DNA from: a virus
Taxonomy: Duplodnaviria; Caudoviricetes
Virus record (IMG/VR): IMGVR_UViG_3300020045_013107
Coordinates: 1 to 36,092 of that record
Strand: one strand, 5' to 3'
Length of the DNA stretch: 36,092 bases
Below the pieces are notes generated by a model. That model had not been told where the DNA came from. It saw only the letters and a program-made list of their open reading frames with translations, and searched no databases. The translations under genes were made by a program, and so were the position numbers. Below, in pieces: positions 267 through 35,987 of the stretch (the stretch's first letter is position 1; each line of letters begins with the position of its first letter).

Positions 267-524
267 TTAATTTATAGGTAACAAAATATTATTCTTTGAT
301 TTTAATTTTGCGGCTGCTGTAATTTCAATTTGTTTTGCCAGTACTTGATTTATTTCAGTAGATATAAACGATGATAATATTTCCAACAATTCAACCGAGT
401 CAACATTGTTTCTTTCTATGAAACTTTTCAAATATGTGTGCATCTTAATTTTTAATTGATCCAGTCTTTCATTTTTTTCTTTTACTAATCTTTCGCATTC
501 TGATTTAAAACCTAAGTCAATCAT
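267..524 (-). CDS. Hypothetical protein (85 aa)
   Basis: ORF with RBS-like AAAGGGTG upstream; follows the portal gene on the same strand. Confidence 0.7.
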   Translation of the reverse strand: MIDLGFKSECERLVKEKNERLDQLKIKMHTYLKSFIERNNVDSVELLEILSSFISTEINQVLAKQIEITAAAKLKSKNNILLPIN

Positions 525-607: not shown

Positions 608-2014
608 TCATTCCTTTAAAATTTCGCTATTATCACCTGTGTTAAAACCATTATCTTCTTCTGAAATGTTAATTTCTTCATCTTCTACATCATTAACATC
701 TGGATGAATTTTAAGCAATGTTTTATTTGATATTCTACCGCCTTGTTTAACAAAATCATCTATCGTTTGGGATTTATTAAATATTATATTTCTATTGCAT
801 GTTATGTCAATTTCATTTAAATTATCTTGTTGTAAGTTTTTCATCAATAAATACTGATTGACAAACCAACATAATTTTAATAATGAATCTTCAATCATTG
901 CTTCTAATTCATCACATTTCAAATCAAGATCCGCATACCTTGATTTTATAACAACATTAGTTGTATTCCCATCTGCGACCCTTCGGGTGTCTACTGCTTG
1001 ACCAAATTCAAATATATTATCACGAATAATTTCTAAAAATGCTTTCCTGTGTTCTATAGGCAAATTCAAGGTTAAAAAGGAAGCGTTGCCATTTTCGTCA
1101 ACTTCAATAATTTTCTTTTCCTTTAATTTATTCCAAAAATCGTCATATTCTGTTTTTGAATCTCCTATTGTCCTATTTACTAATATTAATAATGCATCTT
1201 GTATTTGATCAAGGTTATTAGCCCAATCACTTTCTATAATGTCGTATAGGTCAACATGTTCTTTTATTGCTTCCAAATCATTAATACGATCGTCATTATT
1301 CCACACAGGGACAAACGGGACCCTTCCCCATCCATTAACTTTAGTTTCAATTACTGTATTCCCAATTGAAGTATTCAAACTAATATAATATATAGGGTTT
1401 ATTTCAATTGTAGTATCTAAGTAAAAATCATTTTTGTTATCTTGCATATAATATGTTATCTTTTCATCATCATATACTTCGACTTTATATCTTTCTATTT
1501 TCTTATTATCTTTTATTACAAATACTTTGTAATATCTTATCATTTGCTTTAATTCTGTTTCGTATTCTGTATCCCATATTGGAATACATTCTAATCCTGA
1601 AATTGTTAATACTTGAAATATACCATCTTTATCTATATAAGGATGTAACCATTCAACACCTTTTTTTGCTGCTTCTTTTGCTGCTTTTTTAATGAATCGA
1701 TTAACATTGATTATTTTGTTAATATTATCCGCATTGTTTATAATTAGTTTCTTTCCCAACAAATAATTAACTTTTTGATCAACTATTTTCTTAAAAAATC
1801 CATTTGCTATTTTATGATTGAATTTTGTCAAAAAGTTTTCGGTGTCTCTGGATTTAATATAAGTGTTTTTTGATCTATAATATTTAACACCTTCATATGC
1901 TGACAATTTATATATACTTGAAATATCGTCATTTATCTGTTCTTTAATTATTGCACCATCTGTAATTATATTTTCTTCTGTAATATGCTTATAACTAAAA
2001 TAATTGTCACCCAA
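608..2014 (-). CDS. Phage portal protein, SPP1 Gp6-like
   Basis: Motifs YYRSKN, NGFFKKIVDQKVNYLLGK, NGWGRVPFVPVWNND and IKSRYADLDLKC; immediately downstream of terL. Confidence 0.93.
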   Translation of the reverse strand: MGDNYFSYKHITEENIITDGAIIKEQINDDISSIYKLSAYEGVKYYRSKNTYIKSRDTENFLTKFNHKIANGFFKKIVDQKVNYLLGKKLIINNADNINKIINVNRFIKKAAKEAAKKGVEWLHPYIDKDGIFQVLTISGLECIPIWDTEYETELKQMIRYYKVFVIKDNKKIERYKVEVYDDEKITYYMQDNKNDFYLDTTIEINPIYYISLNTSIGNTVIETKVNGWGRVPFVPVWNNDDRINDLEAIKEHVDLYDIIESDWANNLDQIQDALLILVNRTIGDSKTEYDDFWNKLKEKKIIEVDENGNASFLTLNLPIEHRKAFLEIIRDNIFEFGQAVDTRRVADGNTTNVVIKSRYADLDLKCDELEAMIEDSLLKLCWFVNQYLLMKNLQQDNLNEIDITCNRNIIFNKSQTIDDFVKQGGRISNKTLLKIHPDVNDVEDEEINISEEDNGFNTGDNSEILKE

Positions 2015-4968: not shown

Positions 4969-6390
4969 TTAAATTAATGATAATGCTTTTTCTTTGTTTA
5001 CTAATAATGAGCTTTTTTTCCGTTCTTCCATGAATAAAATTCCTTTTGATTTTAATTCTAAATTCATTCCATTAAATTCATTTTGAGTTATGAATAAATC
5101 TTTTATAGCTTTTCCCCTTGAAGGTATTTTATTATTATTACTATTATCATAAATATAATTAATATATTTTAAAATTAGGTCCCTTGATATCTTAGTCGTG
5201 TCTATCTCCTGTTTAAATCCAATAGTATTTTTACTTTTTATTCCTTCCGTTATTTCTTCATCATATGCTGTAAAGTCTGTATATCCTTTTACAAGATCCG
5301 CTTTTATTGTATCTTTTTTATTTTCAATATTAAAATCCGCAGTACATGTTGCTATATTTCCAGACGAATTAATATTTATGTCTTTGTTTTTTGAATTATT
5401 AAAAGTTTTAATATTACTTTTTACATTTTCCATTATTTCAGTAGATAATGTTATTTCTGGATTAACAATTTTTAAATAAATTGCTGCCGCTTCTGAAAAT
5501 AAACCAATAAAAACCAAAAACCATGTTATAAACTTTTTTAAATTGTTTTTGCCTACTATATCACTAATTGTTGAGCTATATCCTTTTGTGGTATCTATTT
5601 CATTTAAAATTGAATCTTTATTTATATTTGTATTGCTTTTTTCATTGCTGTCTGCTGCAATAATTTCTGTTATTTTATTAATACTTTCGTCTGAAATAGA
5701 ATTATCTTTTTTATTTACAATTTCGTCCTTAACTGTTTTGAATACATCATTATACTTTTTTACTTTATCTTCATATGAAAATTTAAATTTTAATTGATAT
5801 GATTTACTGCAATTATTTAGAATCTTTTGCTGTTCTTTTACTCTAGGATCTTTTAAAACAATATTATTTATTTCTGTTTCCGATAACTGTTTTTTATTGC
5901 TTTTTTTTGTTATAGTATCACTAAGAGTTTTTATCAAATTAGTTTTTGAAGCTTCATTATTTAATGTTGCTTCTTCTTTTTTTAATTCTATTTTATAACC
6001 TGAACTATTTAAAATTGATTCATTTTCGATTTTATTTGTCTGGTTCTTTAAATATGCCGTTGAAGCAAAAATTGACAATGAAAATGATGGAATAAAGAAT
6101 ATTATTGCAATAAATGCCTTTAATTTTTTCTTTCTCATTATAGAATTTATAGCAATTTTTGAAGTCCTTAATTCAAAAAATACAATAACATTTCCTATTA
6201 TTAACATAGCTGCCATTGAAAAGAAATTACTACTTGCAAGATCCAAAAATAACATACTTGAAAAAAATAAACTTACAAAAATCAAAAGACTTGACAATAT
6301 ATTCTGCTTTAATTTATCGATCCTATATTCCTCAAATCCCATTAAATCATTTACATAATTTACAAAAACGTTTTTAATCTTATCTTTCAT
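4969..6390 (-). CDS. Multi-pass membrane protein with coiled-coil region and C-terminal winged-helix-like domain
   Basis: Three N-terminal hydrophobic helices, a long K/N/E-rich region, a fourth TM (FITWFLVFIGLFSEAAAIYL) and a C-terminal helical segment (IPSRGKAIKDLFITQNEFNGMNLELKSKGIL). Start moved to ATG 6390 based on the RBS. Confidence 0.7.
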   Translation of the reverse strand: MKDKIKNVFVNYVNDLMGFEEYRIDKLKQNILSSLLIFVSLFFSSMLFLDLASSNFFSMAAMLIIGNVIVFFELRTSKIAINSIMRKKKLKAFIAIIFFIPSFSLSIFASTAYLKNQTNKIENESILNSSGYKIELKKEEATLNNEASKTNLIKTLSDTITKKSNKKQLSETEINNIVLKDPRVKEQQKILNNCSKSYQLKFKFSYEDKVKKYNDVFKTVKDEIVNKKDNSISDESINKITEIIAADSNEKSNTNINKDSILNEIDTTKGYSSTISDIVGKNNLKKFITWFLVFIGLFSEAAAIYLKIVNPEITLSTEIMENVKSNIKTFNNSKNKDININSSGNIATCTADFNIENKKDTIKADLVKGYTDFTAYDEEITEGIKSKNTIGFKQEIDTTKISRDLILKYINYIYDNSNNNKIPSRGKAIKDLFITQNEFNGMNLELKSKGILFMEERKKSSLLVNKEKALSLI

Positions 6391-6407
6391 AATCAAACCC
6401 AACCTCT

Positions 6408-6875
6408 CTATATTTTTTTTGATAAAGTAACTTTTACATATCCTTCTTTTTTGTCTGTCCATCTTTTAAACGTATGACTTTCAACAATGTATGAATCGTC
6501 TTTGTATGCCTTGCCATTGATACTATCTGTAATAATTTTTTCTATGTTATCAAAATCAGGTTTTTTTGTCGGATATATTTCATGCAGTAAACATTGATTT
6601 ATTTTCTTTTTGCTGTAACTATCAGGAATTTTAAAAAATGCTTCTATAGTAATATTAATAGGTCCTTCGATATAGTTGCCCTTAGATTGATAATACATTA
6701 TTTTTACTAAATTTTCATATAACACTGTTTTTTCTGGTGTATACGTTCCATTCCTTGTAACTCTCGCCCTTGCTTTTCCTGCTGGTTCTCCTGGGATTAT
6801 AAAACTAATCTTGTGATTTTCAGTAGTTTTTGCTTGTAGTTTTTTTATTTCTTTATTACAAAAATTACATTTCAT
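6408..6875 (-). CDS. rusA: RusA-family Holliday junction resolvase
   Basis: IPGEPAGKARAR, TYTPEKT and KKPDFDNIEKIITDSINGKAYKDDS. Start at ATG 6875 after GAAAGGGGT. Confidence 0.9.
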   Translation of the reverse strand: MKCNFCNKEIKKLQAKTTENHKISFIIPGEPAGKARARVTRNGTYTPEKTVLYENLVKIMYYQSKGNYIEGPINITIEAFFKIPDSYSKKKINQCLLHEIYPTKKPDFDNIEKIITDSINGKAYKDDSYIVESHTFKRWTDKKEGYVKVTLSKKI

Positions 6876-7038
6876 ATGATACCCCTTTCGGTGGCTTTCG
6901 CCCCACATAATAATAAATATGTTTTAAAATATAAAGACACAGAATCGCCTTCAATTATACCTGTAACCGTTCTACTATTCATTAACTTTTGTTCTAGGCA
7001 ATTCCTTTTATTTTATTAGGGGCTTTTACACCCCTTTA

Positions 7039-12167: not shown

Positions 12168-12231
12168 CCCATTTGCCCTTTGGGCATTTCCCATTTGCCC
12201 TTTGGGCATTTCCCATTTGCCCTTTGGGCAT
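12168..12231. repeat. Three tandem 22-bp iterons (origin A)
   Basis: CCCATTTGCCCTTTGGGCATTT x3 (third copy 20 bp), followed by AT-rich 12-bp repeats CAATAATATAAA. Confidence 0.85.
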
Positions 12232-13211: not shown

Positions 13212-13685
13212 ATGAAAAAAATGTTGAGTCGAACTCATGTAAGTATTGGCATATTAACAGCACTAAGCTTTTTAATATTTAAAACAGATCAACCTATTAA
13301 TTTAAGGGAATTTATTCCGGGGGCGGTATTAGGATCAATAATTCCTGACATTGATACTGCTAGAAGTTGGGCGGCTCAAACAATACCATTTATTGATGAT
13401 CTTTTAAGAAAGTTGGGTGTATTATCGCATAGAGGATTGGCACACGGGAATGAAAAAATAATAGGAATATTCATTATTTCATCACTATTATATTGGATAT
13501 ACTTCAAGTATTACACTAATGATTTAATGTTAGGTTTAAGCATAGGGTATATAAGTCACATAATAGCAGACTACATTGCAAAACATATTAAATTAACTTG
13601 TAAAAAACATGATGGATGTATATTTAAATTAGCATGGATGATAAATATATTACTTTTAATAAAAATTAATAAGGGAGGTGTTTAA
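13212..13685 (+). CDS. Membrane-bound metal-dependent hydrolase (YdjM family)
   Basis: RTH, GSIIPDIDT, HRGLAH and GYISHIIAD motifs with TM segments. Confidence 0.88.
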   Translation: MKKMLSRTHVSIGILTALSFLIFKTDQPINLREFIPGAVLGSIIPDIDTARSWAAQTIPFIDDLLRKLGVLSHRGLAHGNEKIIGIFIISSLLYWIYFKYYTNDLMLGLSIGYISHIIADYIAKHIKLTCKKHDGCIFKLAWMINILLLIKINKGGV

Positions 13686-13686
13686 T

Positions 13687-13788
13687 GTGAGTGTAATTAT
13701 TATCTTAATAATGGTTAAATGGGCATTGATGATAAAAACATTGATGAATATGTTACTTATAATAAAAATTAATAAAGGAAGTATTTAA
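13687..13788 (+). CDS. 33-aa hydrophobic peptide created by a local tandem duplication (not in ORF track)
   Basis: GGAGGT RBS and GTG start: MSVIIILIMVKWALMIKTLMNMLLIIKINKGSI. Confidence 0.5.
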   Translation: MSVIIILIMVKWALMIKTLMNMLLIIKINKGSI

Positions 13789-13789
13789 T

Positions 13790-14749
13790 ATGTATGTAAT
13801 TGTTATTTTAATAATAGTTGGTTTGATAATTTTGTCATATATTTTAGATGGAATTATTAAATCCAAAAATAATTATAATGAAATAATATTTTGTTTATCT
13901 AATTTTGGTCTATACGATACTGATTTTAATAATAATCAAATAATTCATAATGACCCAGTAAATAAAAATAATGATTCTAAGTTTTTAGATTTAATAAAAA
14001 AAGTAGATACAAATAATTTTAAATTACCTTGGGTTGTTGGACTTGATACAAATGGCAATATAATATTAAAGGATATTTCGGAGGCACCACATATTTTAAT
14101 AGCTGGATGTACTGGATCCGGAAAATCAGTAGCATTAAACACATTAATCTGCAGTTTGATATTATCAACATCATCTGCAGATGTTGAATTAATTTTAATA
14201 GATCCCAAAATGATTGAGTTAAATTTTTATTCATCCATACCACACTTAAGAACAAACATAATAACAGAAATAAATGAAGCTTCTAGTATATTGGACACAA
14301 TAATTAAAGATATGAACAATAGATATAAATTATTAGCAGATGTAAAAGTTAAAAGTTTAGAAGCTTTGTATCAAAAAACTAAAATAAAATTAAAAAGGTT
14401 AGTCATTTGCTTTGATGAATTTGCAGATTTTACACTACAAGATAAAAGTATACAAAATAAAATTACTTTAATTGCTCAAAAATCAAGGGCTTGCGGTATA
14501 CATTTAGTAATAGCAACACAAAAACCAATTAAGGAAATAATTGATACTAAAATTAAAGCAAACATTCCTGTCGTTATTGCTTTAAGGACTACAAATAAAA
14601 ATGAATCAAGGGTTATATTAGACATGAACGGTTGCGAGATATTAAAAGGTAAAGGCGATATGCAAATAAAAGATATTAATGGAATGACTAGGGTACAAGG
14701 TTCATTTATATCAGATGATGATATCGAAAATATATGTAATAAATTCTAA
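13790..14749 (+). CDS. FtsK/SpoIIIE-family DNA translocase motor with a single N-terminal TM and no gamma domain
   Basis: PHILIAGCTGSGKS, LILIDPKMIEL, ICFDEFAD, RACGIHLVIATQKP, SRVILD..G.E.LKGKGDM and RVQGSFISD. Confidence 0.92.
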   Translation: MYVIVILIIVGLIILSYILDGIIKSKNNYNEIIFCLSNFGLYDTDFNNNQIIHNDPVNKNNDSKFLDLIKKVDTNNFKLPWVVGLDTNGNIILKDISEAPHILIAGCTGSGKSVALNTLICSLILSTSSADVELILIDPKMIELNFYSSIPHLRTNIITEINEASSILDTIIKDMNNRYKLLADVKVKSLEALYQKTKIKLKRLVICFDEFADFTLQDKSIQNKITLIAQKSRACGIHLVIATQKPIKEIIDTKIKANIPVVIALRTTNKNESRVILDMNGCEILKGKGDMQIKDINGMTRVQGSFISDDDIENICNKF

Positions 14750-16093: not shown

Positions 16094-16468
16094 TTATATA
16101 TTTTTTTTATCATTAGCTGGATCTTTTCCATTCTGAGTTAATTTCTCAACATTTTCAGCTTGTGTTAAATCATTAGGATCAACTAATTTTAATTTTACTT
16201 CTTTAACTTTACATTTTAAATTATTGAAAGATATTTCAACCATTTTCATTCTTTTCTTTTCATTATTAGCCATGTTTTGATTTTCTTTTACAATTTGTTT
16301 TGATTCTTCATCATTTAATTTTTCATATTCTTTTATTATTAGCTCATAACTTTCTAAATTAATTTTCATGTCGAGATATCTAATTTGAAATTGTTCCATT
16401 CTTTTTAAAATGATTTTATTTTCAATATCTTCTGGTAAATCATTTATTGTCATTTCTTTAATATCCAT
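16094..16468 (-). CDS. Hypothetical coiled-coil protein at the end of the tail operon
   Basis: AAGGTGG RBS before ATG 16468. Confidence 0.7.
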   Translation of the reverse strand: MDIKEMTINDLPEDIENKIILKRMEQFQIRYLDMKINLESYELIIKEYEKLNDEESKQIVKENQNMANNEKKRMKMVEISFNNLKCKVKEVKLKLVDPNDLTQAENVEKLTQNGKDPANDKKNI

Positions 16469-16491
16469 GATATATACCACCTTTTTTTATT

Positions 16492-24998: not shown

Positions 24999-25292
24999 TT
25001 ACACCTCCCTAACCCGCATTAAAACATCCTTTTCAAATATATTACTATCAGTCGTTACAATAATTATTGTTATCTTATAATCAAGGCCATTAACACCATT
25101 GAAAGGTTTTATATATATAATTTTCCCTTCATTATCTTGTGAATGGTCAAATACAACTGCTGATGTAATATCATTATCATTTAAATATGCTGTTACTGTA
25201 TAAGTTGATATTGTTTCATCTGTTGATAAATTATTTGAAAAGTCTATCGAAATACTAAATTTCTCACTTGGCTGTTTCTCGAAAGAATCCAT
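24999..25292 (-). CDS. Fibre adaptor-like small protein
   Basis: EKQPSE...SIDFS..L...ETI and GVNGLDYKIT..TT pattern; directly follows the long fibre gene. Confidence 0.6.
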   Translation of the reverse strand: MDSFEKQPSEKFSISIDFSNNLSTDETISTYTVTAYLNDNDITSAVVFDHSQDNEGKIIYIKPFNGVNGLDYKITIIIVTTDSNIFEKDVLMRVREV

Positions 25293-25304
25293 GATATCAC
25301 CCCA

Positions 25305-28025
25305 TTAATAATTGTTTGATGTAAAACTTATGTTTTTACTATTTGATAAAAATGTTTTTATTGGAATAAATTTTTCAACATTTAATGAAATGTTATATAT
25401 TGCTAAAATTACAGGAATTATATTTACAAATATAATTATGTCTGTATTAATTGATAGGTCCTTTATTTCACATGAAATATTAATTATATTTTGAGATATA
25501 TTTACACTAGTACTCATTAATATTTCATTGATACATACAAATATATTTATGATTTCTATTGAAAGTATACTATTCGCATGTATTACGCTATTATTAATAT
25601 TACTATCTATATTAATTACATCTATATTTATATTTGTTTCTGTTAAAAGTTCGCAATTAATTATTGAAACTAAACAATTTGTTCTTGGCATTCCTATAAT
25701 TGTTATTATTTCAAGTGAAGAATTATTAATATTACAATCAGTATTATTTAATGGGATATTCATAAAACTATTTGCAATTAACAAACAATCATTAATGTTA
25801 GCATCTACATCAATTACATCAATAGACATATTAACAACAACTATCAATGTTATATCTTTAATATCAATAGATACTTCTATTATGTTTATTAAAATATTGC
25901 AATTTATTATAATGCTCAAATTTTCAATATTAATATTACCATCAATTGATGGTATATCTATTATTGAATTTGTTTGTATTCCATTAATTAATATTGACGT
26001 ATTTATATTAATTAATGGAATTGATATTTCTACATTTGTTGTTATTTCTGTATTCCTTAATATTGTATTAACATTAATAGTTTGTAAACTTACAATATTA
26101 ACTGATGAATTAAGGGTAATATCATCAAAGCTAAGAGATGTATTAATTATTGGTATATTGATAACATAATCGTTTTTAAAGCTTATACTATAAGTTTCTA
26201 TCGTTACATTGATAACATTTATAGAAGCATAGTAATTAATAGATACTTCTGGATTATTTATTAATATCGATACATCCACAATATCAATATTAATATTTGC
26301 TTCGGTTATTATTGAACTATCTAAAATATCTATACTAGCATTTAAAACTGGAATAGCAATAAAAACATAAATAAATGTTTTTACTTCTGGAATATATGTA
26401 TTTAATGCAATATCAATAAATGGAATATTTACTATTTTTGGTATTGATATTGCATTGCTAATAATATTAATATTACAATTATTAACTGGAATTAATAAAC
26501 TATTATTGGTAATTAATTCAACATTGTTAATATTTACTGCAGAATTAACTAAAACTATATCAATATTAACGCCTGATGAAATACTATTACTATTAATAAT
26601 TGTACTTATATTTATTAAATCAACTAAAGCTTCAACATCTATATTTAAGTTAGTTTCATTAACTACAATGCCTATATTTATTAATGGTATTGATAAAATA
26701 CTATTGGTTGCAATACTTGAGTTTCCAATACTTACATCTGCATTGTTTACTAGTGCTGAAATATTTATTGAAGTAATTATTGATAAATTAATAATGGTTA
26801 CTTCAATATTTGTAATTGGTATAGTTATAATACTATTTGTTTCTATCTCCGAATTACTAATTACACATGATATATCATTAACGGGTATTGTCACAATTGA
26901 TTTTGTTATAATTCCAGGATTATTAATTAATAATCCTGGAATTATAACTGGACCTAAAATATTAACAGATCCAGTTATGTTCAAATTATAAAGACTAATT
27001 TCAACATCAATTAATGGTGTGTTTATTATTTTTGGTAATGATACAATTGAATTATTAATAATTATGGAAATATTAGTGAGTAGTATTCCGATATTGGCTT
27101 CTGTAATTATTGAAAGATTTATGATTGATAAGTCAATATTTATTGATGGCACGTCTATATTTACGCTTGTTTCAATGCTACTATTTAAAATTGTTGTATC
27201 AATATTTATAACTTGTATTGAATTATTAATATTAATAATTACATCTGTATTACTAATTGCAATACTACAATCAGTCAATGGAATGTCAATATCAAACCCA
27301 ATAGCAATAATTGAATTATCAATTGATGTACTTATATTTATAACAGGTATTGTTATAATATTGTTTGTTTCTATACCGCCATCATTAACCAATGTACTTA
27401 TATCTGTCTTTTGAATATTCGCATTACACCCAATAGCAATAATTGAATTATTAACCGCAGTATTGCAATTAATTAATGGTACTGCAATATTTTTTGATAT
27501 AGTATATGTTATTACTAATTTAGGCCTTTGTGAAGATGTCGCATGATCTGACGTACTAGCATTAAATCCTTTAAATTGGTTTGTTGTTGATGCTGAAAAT
27601 CCATAATTTACATAAGTTTCATCACATAAAGATTGAACTAATGAAGTAATATCAAAATCTTTATTTCCTGTAAAGGAACCAGCAATTGATATTGATCCGT
27701 GTTTTGTTGCATTAATTGTTGGTTTACTATTCCAAGTAACCGTTGATTCTGTCCAATCACTTGTAATTCTATTGATTCCGTATGTATCGGTGGCACTAGT
27801 ATAAGTTATATATAAACTTAATATTGCACTTGTTATTGCTGCACCATATATTGATGATAAATCAAATTGTAATAATGGATACTTATTAAGGTCGAAGTAT
27901 CCATCCGGACCTTGATAACTAAGTTGCATTTCGTTACTAGTTCCGTAATTAGTTGTTTTTGCCGCTTCATTTACCCAACTATCCTTGCCTGCTGTTCCGT
28001 CTGGTTGTAAAGTTAAACTAGCCAT
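25305..28025 (-). CDS. Long fibre-like protein: N-terminal DNRLRE-like beta-sandwich plus Ile/Asn-rich ~21-aa repeats
   Basis: LTLQP...GKDSWV...TNYG...LLQFDLS...ITSAILSLY...WTESTVTWN..P...RPKLVITY, then about 700 aa of 21-aa periodic repeats. Confidence 0.75.
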   Translation of the reverse strand: MASLTLQPDGTAGKDSWVNEAAKTTNYGTSNEMQLSYQGPDGYFDLNKYPLLQFDLSSIYGAAITSAILSLYITYTSATDTYGINRITSDWTESTVTWNSKPTINATKHGSISIAGSFTGNKDFDITSLVQSLCDETYVNYGFSASTTNQFKGFNASTSDHATSSQRPKLVITYTISKNIAVPLINCNTAVNNSIIAIGCNANIQKTDISTLVNDGGIETNNIITIPVINISTSIDNSIIAIGFDIDIPLTDCSIAISNTDVIININNSIQVINIDTTILNSSIETSVNIDVPSINIDLSIINLSIITEANIGILLTNISIIINNSIVSLPKIINTPLIDVEISLYNLNITGSVNILGPVIIPGLLINNPGIITKSIVTIPVNDISCVISNSEIETNSIITIPITNIEVTIINLSIITSINISALVNNADVSIGNSSIATNSILSIPLINIGIVVNETNLNIDVEALVDLINISTIINSNSISSGVNIDIVLVNSAVNINNVELITNNSLLIPVNNCNINIISNAISIPKIVNIPFIDIALNTYIPEVKTFIYVFIAIPVLNASIDILDSSIITEANINIDIVDVSILINNPEVSINYYASINVINVTIETYSISFKNDYVINIPIINTSLSFDDITLNSSVNIVSLQTINVNTILRNTEITTNVEISIPLININTSILINGIQTNSIIDIPSIDGNINIENLSIIINCNILINIIEVSIDIKDITLIVVVNMSIDVIDVDANINDCLLIANSFMNIPLNNTDCNINNSSLEIITIIGMPRTNCLVSIINCELLTETNINIDVINIDSNINNSVIHANSILSIEIINIFVCINEILMSTSVNISQNIINISCEIKDLSINTDIIIFVNIIPVILAIYNISLNVEKFIPIKTFLSNSKNISFTSNNY

Positions 28026-28055
28026 AATTTAAACGCCACCTTTCCGTGATGGTGT

Positions 28056-28493
28056 TTATGCGACGGCTGGAACTGTAAATGTAATTATTCCGCTTGCATT
28101 ATATGTCAATGTAAAGTCACCATCTGAACTAGATTTATTTTCCACAAAATCAATATATCCTATTAATGGGCTTGTTGAATCTGTTCCGGTACTTTTATAT
28201 ATAACCGCATATCTAGCAGTTATAGTTGAATTTGACCAAGTTGTATTCGCTGCATCTAATGTTGTCACATTGCTGGCAACTGTATCTGTTTTACTTCCTA
28301 ACGTTGCACCACCTGCTGTATATCCTGTCCCTGTAACTTCATTATCAACGTCGCTTTTATAACCATGTGTGTTTTGTGCTGGTGTATATGAAGAAGTGCA
28401 AAGCATGACTTTAATTGTATCATCTGCGAAATCAATTTCGGCCCTCATTGCTTTTTGTGGAAAAGTTGAATATAAATAACTAGTTACTGCCAT
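28056..28493 (-). CDS. Virion structural protein (fibre-associated)
   Basis: IDF..DTIKVML, EVTGTGYTAGG.TL, ITARYAVIY and LIGYIDF. Start at ATG 28493. Confidence 0.7.
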   Translation of the reverse strand: MAVTSYLYSTFPQKAMRAEIDFADDTIKVMLCTSSYTPAQNTHGYKSDVDNEVTGTGYTAGGATLGSKTDTVASNVTTLDAANTTWSNSTITARYAVIYKSTGTDSTSPLIGYIDFVENKSSSDGDFTLTYNASGIITFTVPAVA

Positions 28494-28516
28494 GATAAAA
28501 CCCACCTTTCAATATT

Positions 28517-31644: not shown

Positions 31645-32079
31645 TTAATTATTTTTTTTATATTGTTCCATCAATTTAAAGAAATTTACTTTCAAATCCT
31701 TTTTATATTCTTTTTCATATTCGCCATTTTTGTCAATGCTTGTATAATATAAATTACCTTTTCTTATTTCAAAGATAAAAGCAGTATTTGAAGCATTTTC
31801 AATCATTGTTATTTTTTCTTTGTTGTAATTTGAAATTTCTAGCTTAAAATTATTTATTTCTTTTGTTTCTTTTGTATAGGCTGCAATATCTGCTGTATTA
31901 TTTTCTAAGTCTATATTAAGTAAATTCAATGTTGTTTCACCATCTGAAATGTAACATCCATTTAAATTATTATCTTTAGTAATAAAAAAAATAGTTGAGG
32001 CTATTACTACTGCAGTAATTATTACAATTATTAAGACATTAACTTTTTTACCAAATATCACAAAATACCCTTCTTTCAA
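31645..32079 (-). CDS. Membrane-anchored / exported hypothetical protein
   Basis: N-terminal TM (VLIIVIITAVVIASTIFFI). Confidence 0.6.
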   Translation of the reverse strand: MKEGYFVIFGKKVNVLIIVIITAVVIASTIFFITKDNNLNGCYISDGETTLNLLNIDLENNTADIAAYTKETKEINNFKLEISNYNKEKITMIENASNTAFIFEIRKGNLYYTSIDKNGEYEKEYKKDLKVNFFKLMEQYKKNN

Positions 32080-32124: not shown

Positions 32125-32673
32125 TTAAATCACCTTTATTTTATCGTTTCTTGTATTATATTCAAGCTCATAAGACAAAGTCAACATATTTTCAATATTA
32201 AGATCTATAATGTAGAAACTTTTTTCTATTTCCTGATTATTTTCTTTATATATTTCAAAATAATAATTAGCTAATTGGAAATTATTTAAGTTTTCTATTA
32301 TTTCATTTAATACAGTTTTATGTATATGTAAAAATTTGTCTTTGTTTTGACCTTCTTTTATAATTCCAACATTTTCAAAATCGACATAAAATTCTTTTTC
32401 ATCTTCTGATAATTTTATTTTTTGATTGTTTTTAACTTGAAATACATCCTTTTTATAATTAAAATAATCTACTGTATTCTTATTTTTAAAATAAATAGAA
32501 TATCTTTCAGTTTCGATATCTTCTACTTTCTTTTTTATTTCCCTTACTGTTATTTCAATATGTGCTGTTTTAAATTTTATTATTTTCCCAGTAATTTCAG
32601 TATATATATCTTCTTCCAATAATAACGCTTTACCTTTTAGACTTCCTTTATCTATAATTCCTAATTGAACCAC
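32125..32673 (-). CDS. Hypothetical protein
   Basis: GAGGTG RBS, GTG start, 182 aa. Confidence 0.7.
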   Translation of the reverse strand: MVQLGIIDKGSLKGKALLLEEDIYTEITGKIIKFKTAHIEITVREIKKKVEDIETERYSIYFKNKNTVDYFNYKKDVFQVKNNQKIKLSEDEKEFYVDFENVGIIKEGQNKDKFLHIHKTVLNEIIENLNNFQLANYYFEIYKENNQEIEKSFYIIDLNIENMLTLSYELEYNTRNDKIKVI

Positions 32674-33417: not shown

Positions 33418-34092
33418 TTAACCCGCCTTTTTAACATCTTCTTTTATTGTTATTTCTATATGTGTAACTGTTTTACCTTTTTTATATTCCTTTACTTCTA
33501 ACATAAATCTAGTATTATGATTAACTTCTGGAATAGCTTTATTTAGTACTTTTTGATTTATATTTTTTATTTGATAAGTATTTGGAATATTGAAATATTT
33601 TTTAAATGTATCTAATTTCATTTTTATTTTTCCTGAATATCTACAGGCGAACTCATACATTCTGATACTGTAATCTGATTTCATAGAATATAATTCATCT
33701 AGAATTATTTTACTGAACTTTCCATCATCAATATTAAAATATTTTAAAGCTTCTTCATTGAAATTGAAAATTATTTCTTTTTCCTTATCATCAATTACAT
33801 ACTTAGTAAACATTGAAATACTAATTATTTTACCATTGCTTTTAAATGTTATTTCTTTAGGTATCTTTAGTATTATCATTATCATTTCGTTAAAGGTTTT
33901 ATTACCTTTAAATACATTTTTCATTTGTGAGTAATTAACAACTACACTTGAATTGATTTCACTTCCAATTTGTTTTAATGCCTTTTCCCTTAATGCTGTG
34001 TAAAATATAAACTTTGCACTTTTGGGCATCTCCATTTTCGGCATATCAATAACCTCATTTCTTATTAGAAATTCAGTATCCACATTATCCAC
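33418..34092 (-). CDS. Plasmid-type replication initiator (Rep_3/RepB family)
   Basis: LIRNEVI, FNEEALKYF, MKSDYSIRMYE, FKKYFNIPNTY, NQKVLNKAIPEVN and KKGKTVTHI, matching the two winged-helix Rep_3 pattern. Confidence 0.88.
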   Translation of the reverse strand: MDNVDTEFLIRNEVIDMPKMEMPKSAKFIFYTALREKALKQIGSEINSSVVVNYSQMKNVFKGNKTFNEMIMIILKIPKEITFKSNGKIISISMFTKYVIDDKEKEIIFNFNEEALKYFNIDDGKFSKIILDELYSMKSDYSIRMYEFACRYSGKIKMKLDTFKKYFNIPNTYQIKNINQKVLNKAIPEVNHNTRFMLEVKEYKKGKTVTHIEITIKEDVKKAG

Positions 34093-34119
34093 ATTATCAA
34101 CACCTTTCTATTATCTACA
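34076..34119 (+). promoter_or_regulatory. Cluster of DnaA boxes
   Basis: GTATCCACA, TTATCCACA (perfect) and TTATCAACA in tandem at 34076-34102, plus TTATCTACA at 34111. Confidence 0.75.
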
Positions 34120-34271
34120 TTATATCATAAGGTAACATTTTATTTAAAAAGTTTTTTTATAAGTTTTTATAAAGATAAAAGCAAGATTATTTTTTGTCTA
34201 TATCTTATCTTATAATCTTTTATCTTATACAAAACCACCAATGATAGTAATGATAATAGATGTATGGTTCT

Positions 34272-34313
34272 ATCGGTAACCAAAAAGGGAGCCATCGGTA
34301 ACCAAAAAGGGAG
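34272..34313. repeat. Iterons of the Rep_3 origin (origin B)
   Basis: ATCGGTAACCAAAAAGGGAG x2 at a 22-bp period, next to an AT-rich tract. Confidence 0.75.
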
Positions 34314-34378
34314 TGACTTTTTAAAAATTAAACAATATAAAATGTTGTAATCGTTAGTATTACTACATCACAACCCTG

Positions 34379-34556
34379 TGCCGAAAGGGCAAATGATACG
34401 AATAAAGAAGTACAACGTTTTTTTTATACATAAATACACTTCAACCCTTTTAATAGTACCATTTGCCCTTTCGGCATAGCCTATTAAATATTAATTATTA
34501 AAATTTGTTTTTTGCTTATATTACTGCATTATAGCCCTGTGCCTTTTGGGCAAATG
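34379..34556. repeat. Three dispersed CATTTGCCC-N4-GGCA sites in alternating orientation
   Basis: 34379-34395 (-), 34460-34476 (+) and 34540-34556 (-), spaced 81 and 80 bp. Confidence 0.8.
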
Positions 34557-34566
34557 GTATAAATAG

Positions 34567-34592
34567 TAAAGGACGTATTTAAACGTCCTTTA
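34567..34592 (-). terminator. Hairpin downstream of the minor head gene
   Basis: TAAAGGACGT-atttaa-ACGTCCTTTA. Confidence 0.55.
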
Positions 34593-34657: not shown

Positions 34658-35458
34658 CTAATCAAAAACCGCTATTGTTGTACATCTACATCTACAATCC
34701 ATTTCAGGGAATCCAAAATCCCCCGGATGTTTAGCTTTGTATTTACCAATGGTATAATAGCCCTCATTGTTTTTATATGTTCTGTCCAATTTATGATGTA
34801 ATTCCCTGGTCCTATCTCCTTTTGTAGCGAGCCACATTTCTTTAAATTCAAGCCCTTTATTCCTAGCTTCTTTATAAGCTTCATTTTTAGATTTGTTGAA
34901 TATCCTTGTTGTTTCTGTCCTGGAAATGTTCAAACTTTTATTTAAATCACCTTCATACATTCCCTTTAATTGTTTTGCTATTTTTGCAACACCTTGACCC
35001 AATACCAAATTACTACTAATAACTTTTATAGTATCTTTTATTAAAATCTTTCTATTTCTTTCTAACCTATCAGACAATGTAATTTTTTTTATTTTATGGT
35101 CAATTGCAGTTTGAATTAATTCATCATTTAAAAAAATCCCACCTAGATATATATTTCCCTGTCCCTGCATAAATGCCAATGTATCATAAAAACCAGTTTC
35201 GAATTTATCTATTAAATCAGTTATTATCATAGTCTGTGAGTCTTTATGTTTTAATGTAATTTTTGTTTCAATTTCTTCCTTTAACATTGTCAATCTTCTA
35301 TATTTATTCAAATCAGATATTTTAATATTTCCATCGCTATCACCGTATTTAATGCCCAATTGAATTAATTCGGCCTCTATCTCTCCATAAAGGTTTTTGT
35401 ATAAAGTTGCCAAATTACTTTTGATTTTTTCATCTTTTTTAATTACTTTATTATCCAT
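34658..35458 (-). CDS. Minor head protein (Mu gpF / SPP1 gp7-like)
   Basis: LSDRL, ISRTETTR, W.ATKGDRTRELHHKLD and HPGD...CRCRCT. Start at ATG 35458 after GGTGG. Confidence 0.88.
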   Translation of the reverse strand: MDNKVIKKDEKIKSNLATLYKNLYGEIEAELIQLGIKYGDSDGNIKISDLNKYRRLTMLKEEIETKITLKHKDSQTMIITDLIDKFETGFYDTLAFMQGQGNIYLGGIFLNDELIQTAIDHKIKKITLSDRLERNRKILIKDTIKVISSNLVLGQGVAKIAKQLKGMYEGDLNKSLNISRTETTRIFNKSKNEAYKEARNKGLEFKEMWLATKGDRTRELHHKLDRTYKNNEGYYTIGKYKAKHPGDFGFPEMDCRCRCTTIAVFD

Positions 35459-35546
35459 GTAACCCACCAACATTTTTATATTTATTGTAATTTGCATGTA
35501 CTGATATAAATTCGTTATGTCCAGCCTCAATAAAAATATTATTCAT
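35451..35546 (-). pseudogene. Relic of an N-acetylmuramoyl-L-alanine amidase (Amidase_3) endolysin
   Basis: MNNIFIEAGHN-EFISVHANYNKYKNVGGLHG*: the IxIDAGH and FISxHAN zinc-ligand motifs are fused; lies directly after the holin-like genes. Confidence 0.75.
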
Positions 35547-35703
35547 TTTTATTTCCCCCATTTGGATTTATATATCCAGCAACATATCCCAAGACAGTCA
35601 AGACTATTGTTATAACTGTGTTCTCGCTTATTTTATCCAAGCACGCCATCACTGCAATTGCAATTATACATATACCAAAAATTATAGATTGTGCTTTAGT
35701 CAT
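35539..35703 (-). CDS. Putative holin, 2 TM, 54 aa (not in ORF track)
   Basis: GGAGG RBS and ATGA overlap: MTKAQSIIFGICIIAIAVMACLDKISENTVITIVLTVLGYVAGYINPNGGNKNE. Confidence 0.7.
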   Translation of the reverse strand: MTKAQSIIFGICIIAIAVMACLDKISENTVITIVLTVLGYVAGYINPNGGNKNE

Positions 35704-35987
35704 CTTGTACCTCCAGAAGCTATAAAAAATATTAAGTATCCAGCACTAGACAATATTAAAAATAAAATTGATACCAAATTAGTTATCAATAAATTATTAA
35801 ATTTACCCATTTTGCTATCTAAAGATTCAACTTTTTTTTCAATATTTATTATACTATTACCTTGTAACTCTGTTTTAGTGCCAATTATTCGCAAATTTTC
35901 CTCCACTTTATCTATTCTTGATTCAAATTTTTTAAGTTTTTCATCAAGAAAATTAATTCGATCCGTTTTGTTACATTCATGTTCCAT
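35700..35987 (-). CDS. XhlA-like lysis-cassette membrane protein
   Basis: Coiled coil (RIDKVEE...IINIEKKVESL) plus a C-terminal TM; GGAGG RBS. Confidence 0.72.
   Translation of the reverse strand: MEHECNKTDRINFLDEKLKKFESRIDKVEENLRIIGTKTELQGNSIINIEKKVESLDSKMGKFNNLLITNLVSILFLILSSAGYLIFFIASGGTR

Follow-up and report, generated by a model that had tools for sequence, protein, structure and literature searches.

Tailed phages of walled bacteria are commonly treated as obliged to encode both a holin and an endolysin. Bacillota phages carry XhlA-holin-Amidase_3 cassettes, and the xhlA-xhlB-xlyA genes of PBSX are of the same type. Amidase_3 enzymes have a zinc-ligand Glu between the two His residues and a catalytic Glu in the C-terminal half.

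The toxin locus of Clostridioides difficile already offers an example of a holin gene paired with a short endolysin remnant (PMC6200909). According to the accessible parts of the reports on the PaLoc genes tcdE and tcdL, behind the intact holin gene comes a short stretch of endolysin that has a ribosome-binding site (RBS) and appears to be translatable; this fragment of 53 aa is of frameshift origin, the pair belongs to a toxin locus on the chromosome, and it has been proposed that a hydrolase is encoded at another site (PMC6200909, PMC12485765, PMC9527704). For pneumococcal phage SV1, the available text describes a host autolysin, LytA, that is triggered by the holin and contributes to progeny release; SV1 naturally keeps its lysin Svl, however, and its lysin-less state is an engineered mutant (PMC6116005, PMC3004956). 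P1-derived plasmids of enterobacteria are described, in the portion of the source at hand, as phage-plasmid derivatives that have lost lysis functions, persist by a plasmid replicon and are often without many tail or regulatory genes (PMC10879196).

Here we analyse a viral stretch of 36,092 nt (the window) in which two holin-like genes precede a 31-codon Amidase_3 remnant. The locus shares gene order, coupling and enzyme family with the Bacillota cassettes (for example in locus L152), but its enzyme is cut to 31 codons and the cassette lies between the portal gene and the minor head gene F, not after the tail genes. The XhlA-like proteins of the window and L152 give no significant alignment (E 0.34). 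In L152, from prophage record G030, what appears by eye to be an IS200-like transposase gene (L152:617-1489) separates holin and Amidase_3. The likeness to tcdE/tcdL is an intact holin gene with a short, translatable-looking fragment behind it; the window, in contrast, is a whole phage genome with a lesion of apparent deletion origin and no toxin or cargo seen. SV1 resembles the release mechanism proposed below, and the P1-derived plasmids resemble this element in their phage-plasmid origin, lost lysis function and plasmid replicon, except that here only the lysin is visibly broken. In the literature consulted, mostly titles and the opening lines of abstracts with few subscription papers, we found no natural whole tailed-phage genome with such a remnant, and to that extent the phage-genome setting is new.

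Gene order of the lysis region

The genome closes by a 121-nt terminal overlap, has 27.7% GC and is classed as a virus contig with direct terminal repeats. The genes around the cassette are as follows.

35700-35987, minus strand: XhlA-like membrane protein, 95 aa, coiled coil and one C-terminal helix; holin-like by weak match
35539-35703, minus strand: putative holin, 54 aa, two hydrophobic segments; from position and hydropathy
35451-35546, minus strand: Amidase_3 endolysin remnant, 31 codons; from profile alignment
34658-35458, minus strand: minor head protein F (SPP1 gp7-like), 266 aa, full length; Pfam Phage_Mu_F
267-524, minus strand: 85-aa ORF after the portal, likely left edge of an inserted block; homologue in genomes G443 and G444
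608-2014, minus strand: portal; directly adjoins F in relative L227

The three small ORFs lie where the initial annotation had placed them. Their stop and start codons overlap, and each start is preceded by a purine-rich RBS-like site. The start of F (35458) and its RBS-like site, GGTGGG, lie inside the 31-codon frame, whose stop overlaps the F start by 8 nt. Between the 85-aa ORF and the XhlA-like gene lies a 250-nt spacer that spans the circular junction. Four homologues of F measure 255-267 aa at 50-64% identity. Just 3' of F, a terminator-like hairpin (34567-34592, minus strand) would part the packaging/lysis transcript from the origin region.

The 95-aa ORF matches Pfam XhlA (PF10779) over positions 3-64 of 67 with E 0.0054 and 17.3 bits against a cut-off of 34.7, and PHROG entries for hemolysin (2.9e-5) and holin (0.008); its hydrophobic stretch spans residues 71-89. 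The 54-aa ORF matched no described holin family in Pfam, PHROGs or NCBIfam, and a homologue search retrieved only the ORF itself. It is small, has 17-residue hydropathy peaks of 2.88 and 2.01 that suggest transmembrane segments, and stands immediately upstream of the endolysin remnant; on position and hydropathy alone it is a putative holin. Neither the XhlA-like protein nor F retrieved a locus as a single query, and a promoter scan around the cassette found sites no more numerous than in shuffles.

An Amidase_3 remnant of 31 codons

In the 31-codon frame a first His motif is fused to a second His motif and its following loop, without some 60 or more internal codons and without the C-terminal catalytic half. 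The peptide matched no Pfam, PHROG or NCBIfam family and no PDB entry at E<=10, and phmmer over 1.84 billion representative proteins returned only the peptide itself. That standard libraries miss it is to be expected of a peptide of 31 residues with a large internal gap. Two profiles were used with filters off. One, independent of the peptide, was built from 28 Bacillota Amidase_3 domains (28 of 32 loci passed a motif filter); the other comprised 50 members of an EAGH-motif subfamily, found via the peptide's own motif and so circular for the first motif. This subfamily of about 200 aa (L002/L154, P0008-P0057), in which EAGH replaces DxGH, consists mostly of unnamed proteins.

With the Bacillota profile, remnant residues 8-29 align to the SxHxN motif and the following Gly at a single-sequence E of 9e-5; with the EAGH profile, residues 1-15 align to the first His motif at E 6e-5. 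Residues 1-10, holding the N-terminal strand and first zinc-ligand His motif, align to both. The string IFIEAGH is common to the remnant and natural PF01520 proteins, a set found through the motif and hence circular on this point. When two collinear segments were chained with a free deletion between them, the remnant scored 36.5 (Bacillota) and 37.8 (EAGH) and ranked first of 1629 six-frame window pieces with both profiles, the next pieces reaching 30.7 and 28.2. None of 5000 residue shuffles (maximum 29.7) and none of 25 order-3 Markov genomes (maximum 31.9) attained the remnant's score. Across 5.9 million translated residues from partly redundant loci, a motif pattern devised with the peptide already in view had this site as its sole match. 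The amidase family was likewise picked after the fact; the position directly behind holin-like genes is the expected one for an endolysin. We conclude from these alignments that the ORF is a true Amidase_3 remnant, as first proposed, and the HMM check that accompanied that proposal came out negative with a standard Pfam search and positive with purpose-built profiles.

The two missing stretches that the initial annotation had described are also borne out. The His-His spacing is 7 in the remnant against 67-82 in the 28 Bacillota domains and 76-89 in the 44 of 50 EAGH-subfamily proteins where both motifs were matched. The frame ends 14 codons past the second His, and no other window piece scores near the remnant as a candidate for the absent C-terminal half. 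Past the second His, the loop is similar to the one in the amidase of relative G440, so amidase-derived sequence probably extends to the Gly codons that form the RBS of F. A test for a functional Amidase_3 (PF01520) endolysin gave no domain match above the Pfam cut-off, and the remnant cannot be an enzyme, since the segment with the zinc-ligand Glu and the half with the catalytic Glu are absent. No relative of the parent gene was found by tblastn on 50,697 phage records or by two exact codon patterns in viral contigs; a looser pattern matched two loci, one a full amidase. Against 401 genomes the peptide hit 33 at E<=1, the best (0.065) at chance level.

It had been suggested that the short frame is kept for translational coupling to F. 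This is a weak reason, as F opens with ATG GAT AA, where any upstream frame in that register will terminate, the portal of L227 ends in the same 8-nt overlap with F, and an in-frame first deletion followed by 12 open codons has a chance of about 12% at this composition. The overlap is probably incidental; selection for coupling is possible but not needed.

Search for another lysin

No second lysin was recognised among the 51 called ORFs with Pfam and PHROGs (30 of them also with NCBIfam), among 105 of 383 alternative frames with Pfam (the remaining 278 being short and inside genes), or in six-frame searches for Amidase_3 and Amidase_2, which agrees with the original reading of the genome. Neither the tape measure nor Tal showed a recognisable hydrolase domain. 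Some 15 ORFs belong to no Pfam, PHROG or NCBIfam family, and two ORFs had been singled out as possible lysins.

31645-32079, minus strand: membrane-anchored small beta-barrel, 144 aa; from a structure model
32125-32673, minus strand: 182-aa ORF, candidate lysin; no family

Neither showed signs of a lysin. The 144-aa model (pLDDT 70.6) is an 8-stranded beta-barrel without a Foldseek match at E<=0.001 and without a hydrolase catalytic domain in the best 50 rows of a structural comparison. Its neighbours are unspecific (best Z 7.7), with lipocalin, avidin and PliC/MliC-like barrels tied, and its Atlas lead, DUF5640/lipocalin, scored below 0.9. The tied PliC/MliC neighbours are lysozyme inhibitors (Z 6.8-7.0, again unspecific). 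For the 182-aa ORF we found no family, Atlas or PDB match and no homologue across 314 loci, and its model (pLDDT 28.6) is unusable.

Relatives and the apparently inserted block

A portal scan yielded matches listed from 42 of 64 parts. Among the matches listed, L227 has the closest packaging module (portal 61%, terminase 55%, F 47%), and no near-identical genome was found. A further relative, L038, has 48-74% identity in structural genes, its record beginning inside F and so lacking the upstream side; a tail-tube alignment search retrieved no locus. The portal gene joins F directly in L227, L064, L067 and L068, one short ORF intervenes in L065 and L066, and other relatives have short ORFs there, none recognised as lysis genes. 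By this comparison the block of 85-aa ORF, spacer, XhlA-like gene, holin-like gene and remnant looks inserted. Downstream of the tail genes, where lysis genes normally stand, Pfam recognises none in the window. In G443/G444, a homologue of the 85-aa ORF (27%) is placed two genes ahead of an intact Amidase_3; in G443, this homologue and the amidase are upstream of the terminase, an arrangement suggesting that the lysis block may have moved as a unit.

The comparison with related genomes called for at the outset found an intact amidase in all four near-complete relatives (Amidase_2 in G003 and G446, Amidase_3 in G440 and G443), which makes the loss particular to this genome. G440 and G446 also carry a phage holin. 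In G442, 54% complete with its tail end missing, neither an Amidase_3 search nor inspection of ORFs found an amidase. The lysins of this lineage differ in type and position. The lysis genes of G443 and G446 (L310:6182-6898; L314:3419-3781, 6136-6885) stand upstream of the terminase and not after the tail genes.

Phage-plasmid features

Beside its virion and packaging gene set (Pfam, PHROGs), the genome has a plasmid replication initiator and origin-like repeats, the two sides of a phage-plasmid.

33418-34092, minus strand: Rep_3 plasmid replication initiator; Pfam Rep3_N and Rep3_C above cut-off
34076-34479, no strand: origin-like region; DnaA-box-like 9-mers, AT-rich stretch, repeats
12168-12231, no strand: three exact direct repeats at 22-bp spacing, iteron- or operator-like; core shared with the inverted repeat upstream of rep

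At the 5' end of rep the origin-like region holds four DnaA-box-like 9-mers in 44 nt (34076-34119), scored against the DnaA-box consensus; genome-wide, the count of such 9-mers equals chance. The region also has an AT-rich stretch, a 22-bp tandem repeat (34272-34313) and an inverted repeat (34376-34479), whose core has five matches, a number reached by none of 100 shuffles. Rep_3 domains occur in relatives L038, at the same position after F, and G442. Both the window and L038 (L038:156-803) have the Rep_3 gene within the head module, with F on one side and the scaffold gene on the other. A DnaD-like initiator, a primase-helicase and RusA form a separate lytic replication set. With Pfam and PHROGs we recognised no integrase, no CI-like repressor and no ParA, ParB or ParM; an 88-aa ORF and FtsK are mere candidates for partition. 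Judging from Rep_3, the DnaA boxes, the 22-bp repeats and the lack of a recognised integrase, the element looks like a phage-plasmid. Such a lifestyle would let a lysis-dead genome persist without particles, a point that the initial annotation had not raised. A host hunt with half of the genome against 401 genomes gave no close match; a weak match over the holin/remnant junction belonged to an unrelated chromosome.

Several further features were seen. A 497-aa protein (4969-6462, minus strand) has three to four hydrophobic segments, a coiled coil and a helix-turn-helix-like C-terminal end; look-alikes at 15-30% identity (L308:7514-8878, L314:4413-5807, L306:9939-10937, L155:13321-14439) lie near FtsK and/or YdjM genes in some relatives, a combination that may be reminiscent of the FtsK/Spd-type DNA transfer modules of Streptomyces. 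At 13639-13819, a 78-nt duplication (85% identity) covers the end of YdjM and the start of FtsK, RBS included. A module at 24999-28505 (minus strand), between capsid and connector genes, encodes a 149-aa protein with about 58-62% to Gordonia phage and MiniFlayer proteins, a 906-aa protein with DNRLRE/CBM96 and Ile/Asn-rich repeats, and a gp77-like adaptor; it is possibly a head or neck fibre. The head-neck module of several relatives includes a protein of about 347 aa that looks by eye like a glycosyltransferase (L038:5179-6228, L066:5724-6767, L067:3814-4857, L068:13714-14757) and is absent from this genome.

Explanations for the broken lysin

We favour, tentatively and without calling it probable, a reading in which particle production continues and lysis depends on a borrowed hydrolase. 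In a circular tailed-phage genome with plasmid-type replication signals and a presumed Bacillota host, two losses would have reduced an Amidase_3 gene to 31 codons. Particles would still be built and the predicted holins would open the membrane; a borrowed wall hydrolase, be it an endolysin from a prophage induced alongside or an autolysin of the host triggered by membrane depolarisation, would then complete lysis. Plasmid replication would tide the element over until the next supply of hydrolase, and selection on its own lysin would thereby be relaxed. Precedents appear in the available text of earlier studies: holin-activated host LytA helps to release SV1 (PMC6116005), an engineered endolysin-null staphylococcal phage multiplied with endolysin supplied in trans, with no unaided host lysis (PMC3224134), and holins of a B. 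thuringiensis phage passed the foreign T7 lysozyme in E. coli (PMC9327680). A stricter form, in which a transmissible Bacillota phage-plasmid without endolysin exits by holins using host autolysins (or from a wall-less host) and needs no helper phage, is unlikely.

The virion genes are unbroken, as initially claimed: frames are open in 22 virion and packaging ORFs (19.2 kb; 18 have a homologue for comparison and four have none against which to check length), in four replication ORFs (4.1 kb) and in both holin-like genes. Were the entire element subject to neutral decay, an independent second lesion would fall in the same gene of about 0.7 kb with a chance of about 3%, and two junctions there with the rest intact favour continued selection on particles with a hydrolase in trans. 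Against this, a single event could plausibly give both junctions, the 3' break being the right edge of the inserted block, and the 3% argument would fail if the cassette arrived already truncated, as it perhaps did. That the small holin genes were spared is not significant (0.32-0.44 by chance), the allele is known in one copy from a single assembly, and rare coincidences are expected when many windows are scanned. Whole-gene losses leave no trace, and a CI-like repressor, ParA and integrase were not recognised; CheckV completeness is 66%, with 63-64% for two other circular relatives. As all four near-complete relatives keep a lysin, the lysin-less state is not an established strategy of the lineage.

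The main rival is a recently disabled phage-plasmid that has lost its lysin and survives only as a Rep_3 plasmid, its virion genes not yet decayed. We regard this as possible but rather unlikely. Rep_3 and the origin-like signals offer persistence independent of the phage, and the allele is a singleton in a lineage that otherwise keeps its lysin; yet two lesions fall in one small gene with none visible in some 23 kb of other lytic genes, and no obvious host-benefit cargo or partition system was seen. Selection at host level against induction should, moreover, eliminate the lethal holin and not the lysin. There is a parallel among P1-related plasmids, 7 of 38 of which are without lysis genes and are read, in the part of the source available, as defective phage-plasmids (PMC10879196).

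That the amidase was replaced by an unrecognised lysin among the unexplained ORFs (such as 32125-32673, 16094-16480 or the C-terminal part of Tal) is improbable. The roughly 15 ORFs without family, among them the 182-aa ORF with no homologue in 314 loci and an unusable model, leave room for one in a lineage whose lysins vary in type and position, but no match to any hydrolase family or solved structure was obtained, the 144-aa candidate is a small beta-barrel, and relatives with an amidase of their own also encode look-alikes of the 497-aa membrane protein. An assembly artefact, or a minority deletion variant picked by the assembler, is still less probable: the record is a single metagenomic one, but the site is untouched by the 20 largest repeat families, two separate junctions would be required, and both flanking genes are whole and in frame. 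We give very little credence to a move to a wall-less or weak-walled, Mollicutes-like Bacillota host in which holins alone suffice. Kept holins with a lost lysin, 27.7% GC and the lack of a recognised virion-associated hydrolase domain in tape measure or Tal would fit, whereas the nearest cultured portal matches include Clostridium phages (about 33%) and relatives of similar GC keep amidases. Equally remote is release tied to sporulation, with particles maturing in the mother cell and leaving when host enzymes lyse it: an FtsK/SpoIIIE-family gene is present and a Clostridia-type host seems likely, but FtsK also occurs in G440, which keeps holin and amidase, no sporulation regulator was recognised, and intact holins would be unneeded.

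Implications

Lysin-less phage genomes are usually blamed on annotation failure, and the remnant described here shows that the usual enzyme was present and then lost, with the remainder of the lytic programme apparently whole. Such remnants slip past standard HMM scans and can be detected by a two-segment profile test. If particles are still released by way of a borrowed hydrolase, the element would exemplify, in nature, a phage that leaves lysis to its host or to a co-resident phage. If they are not released, it would show with unusual clarity how a phage-plasmid begins to turn into a plasmid.
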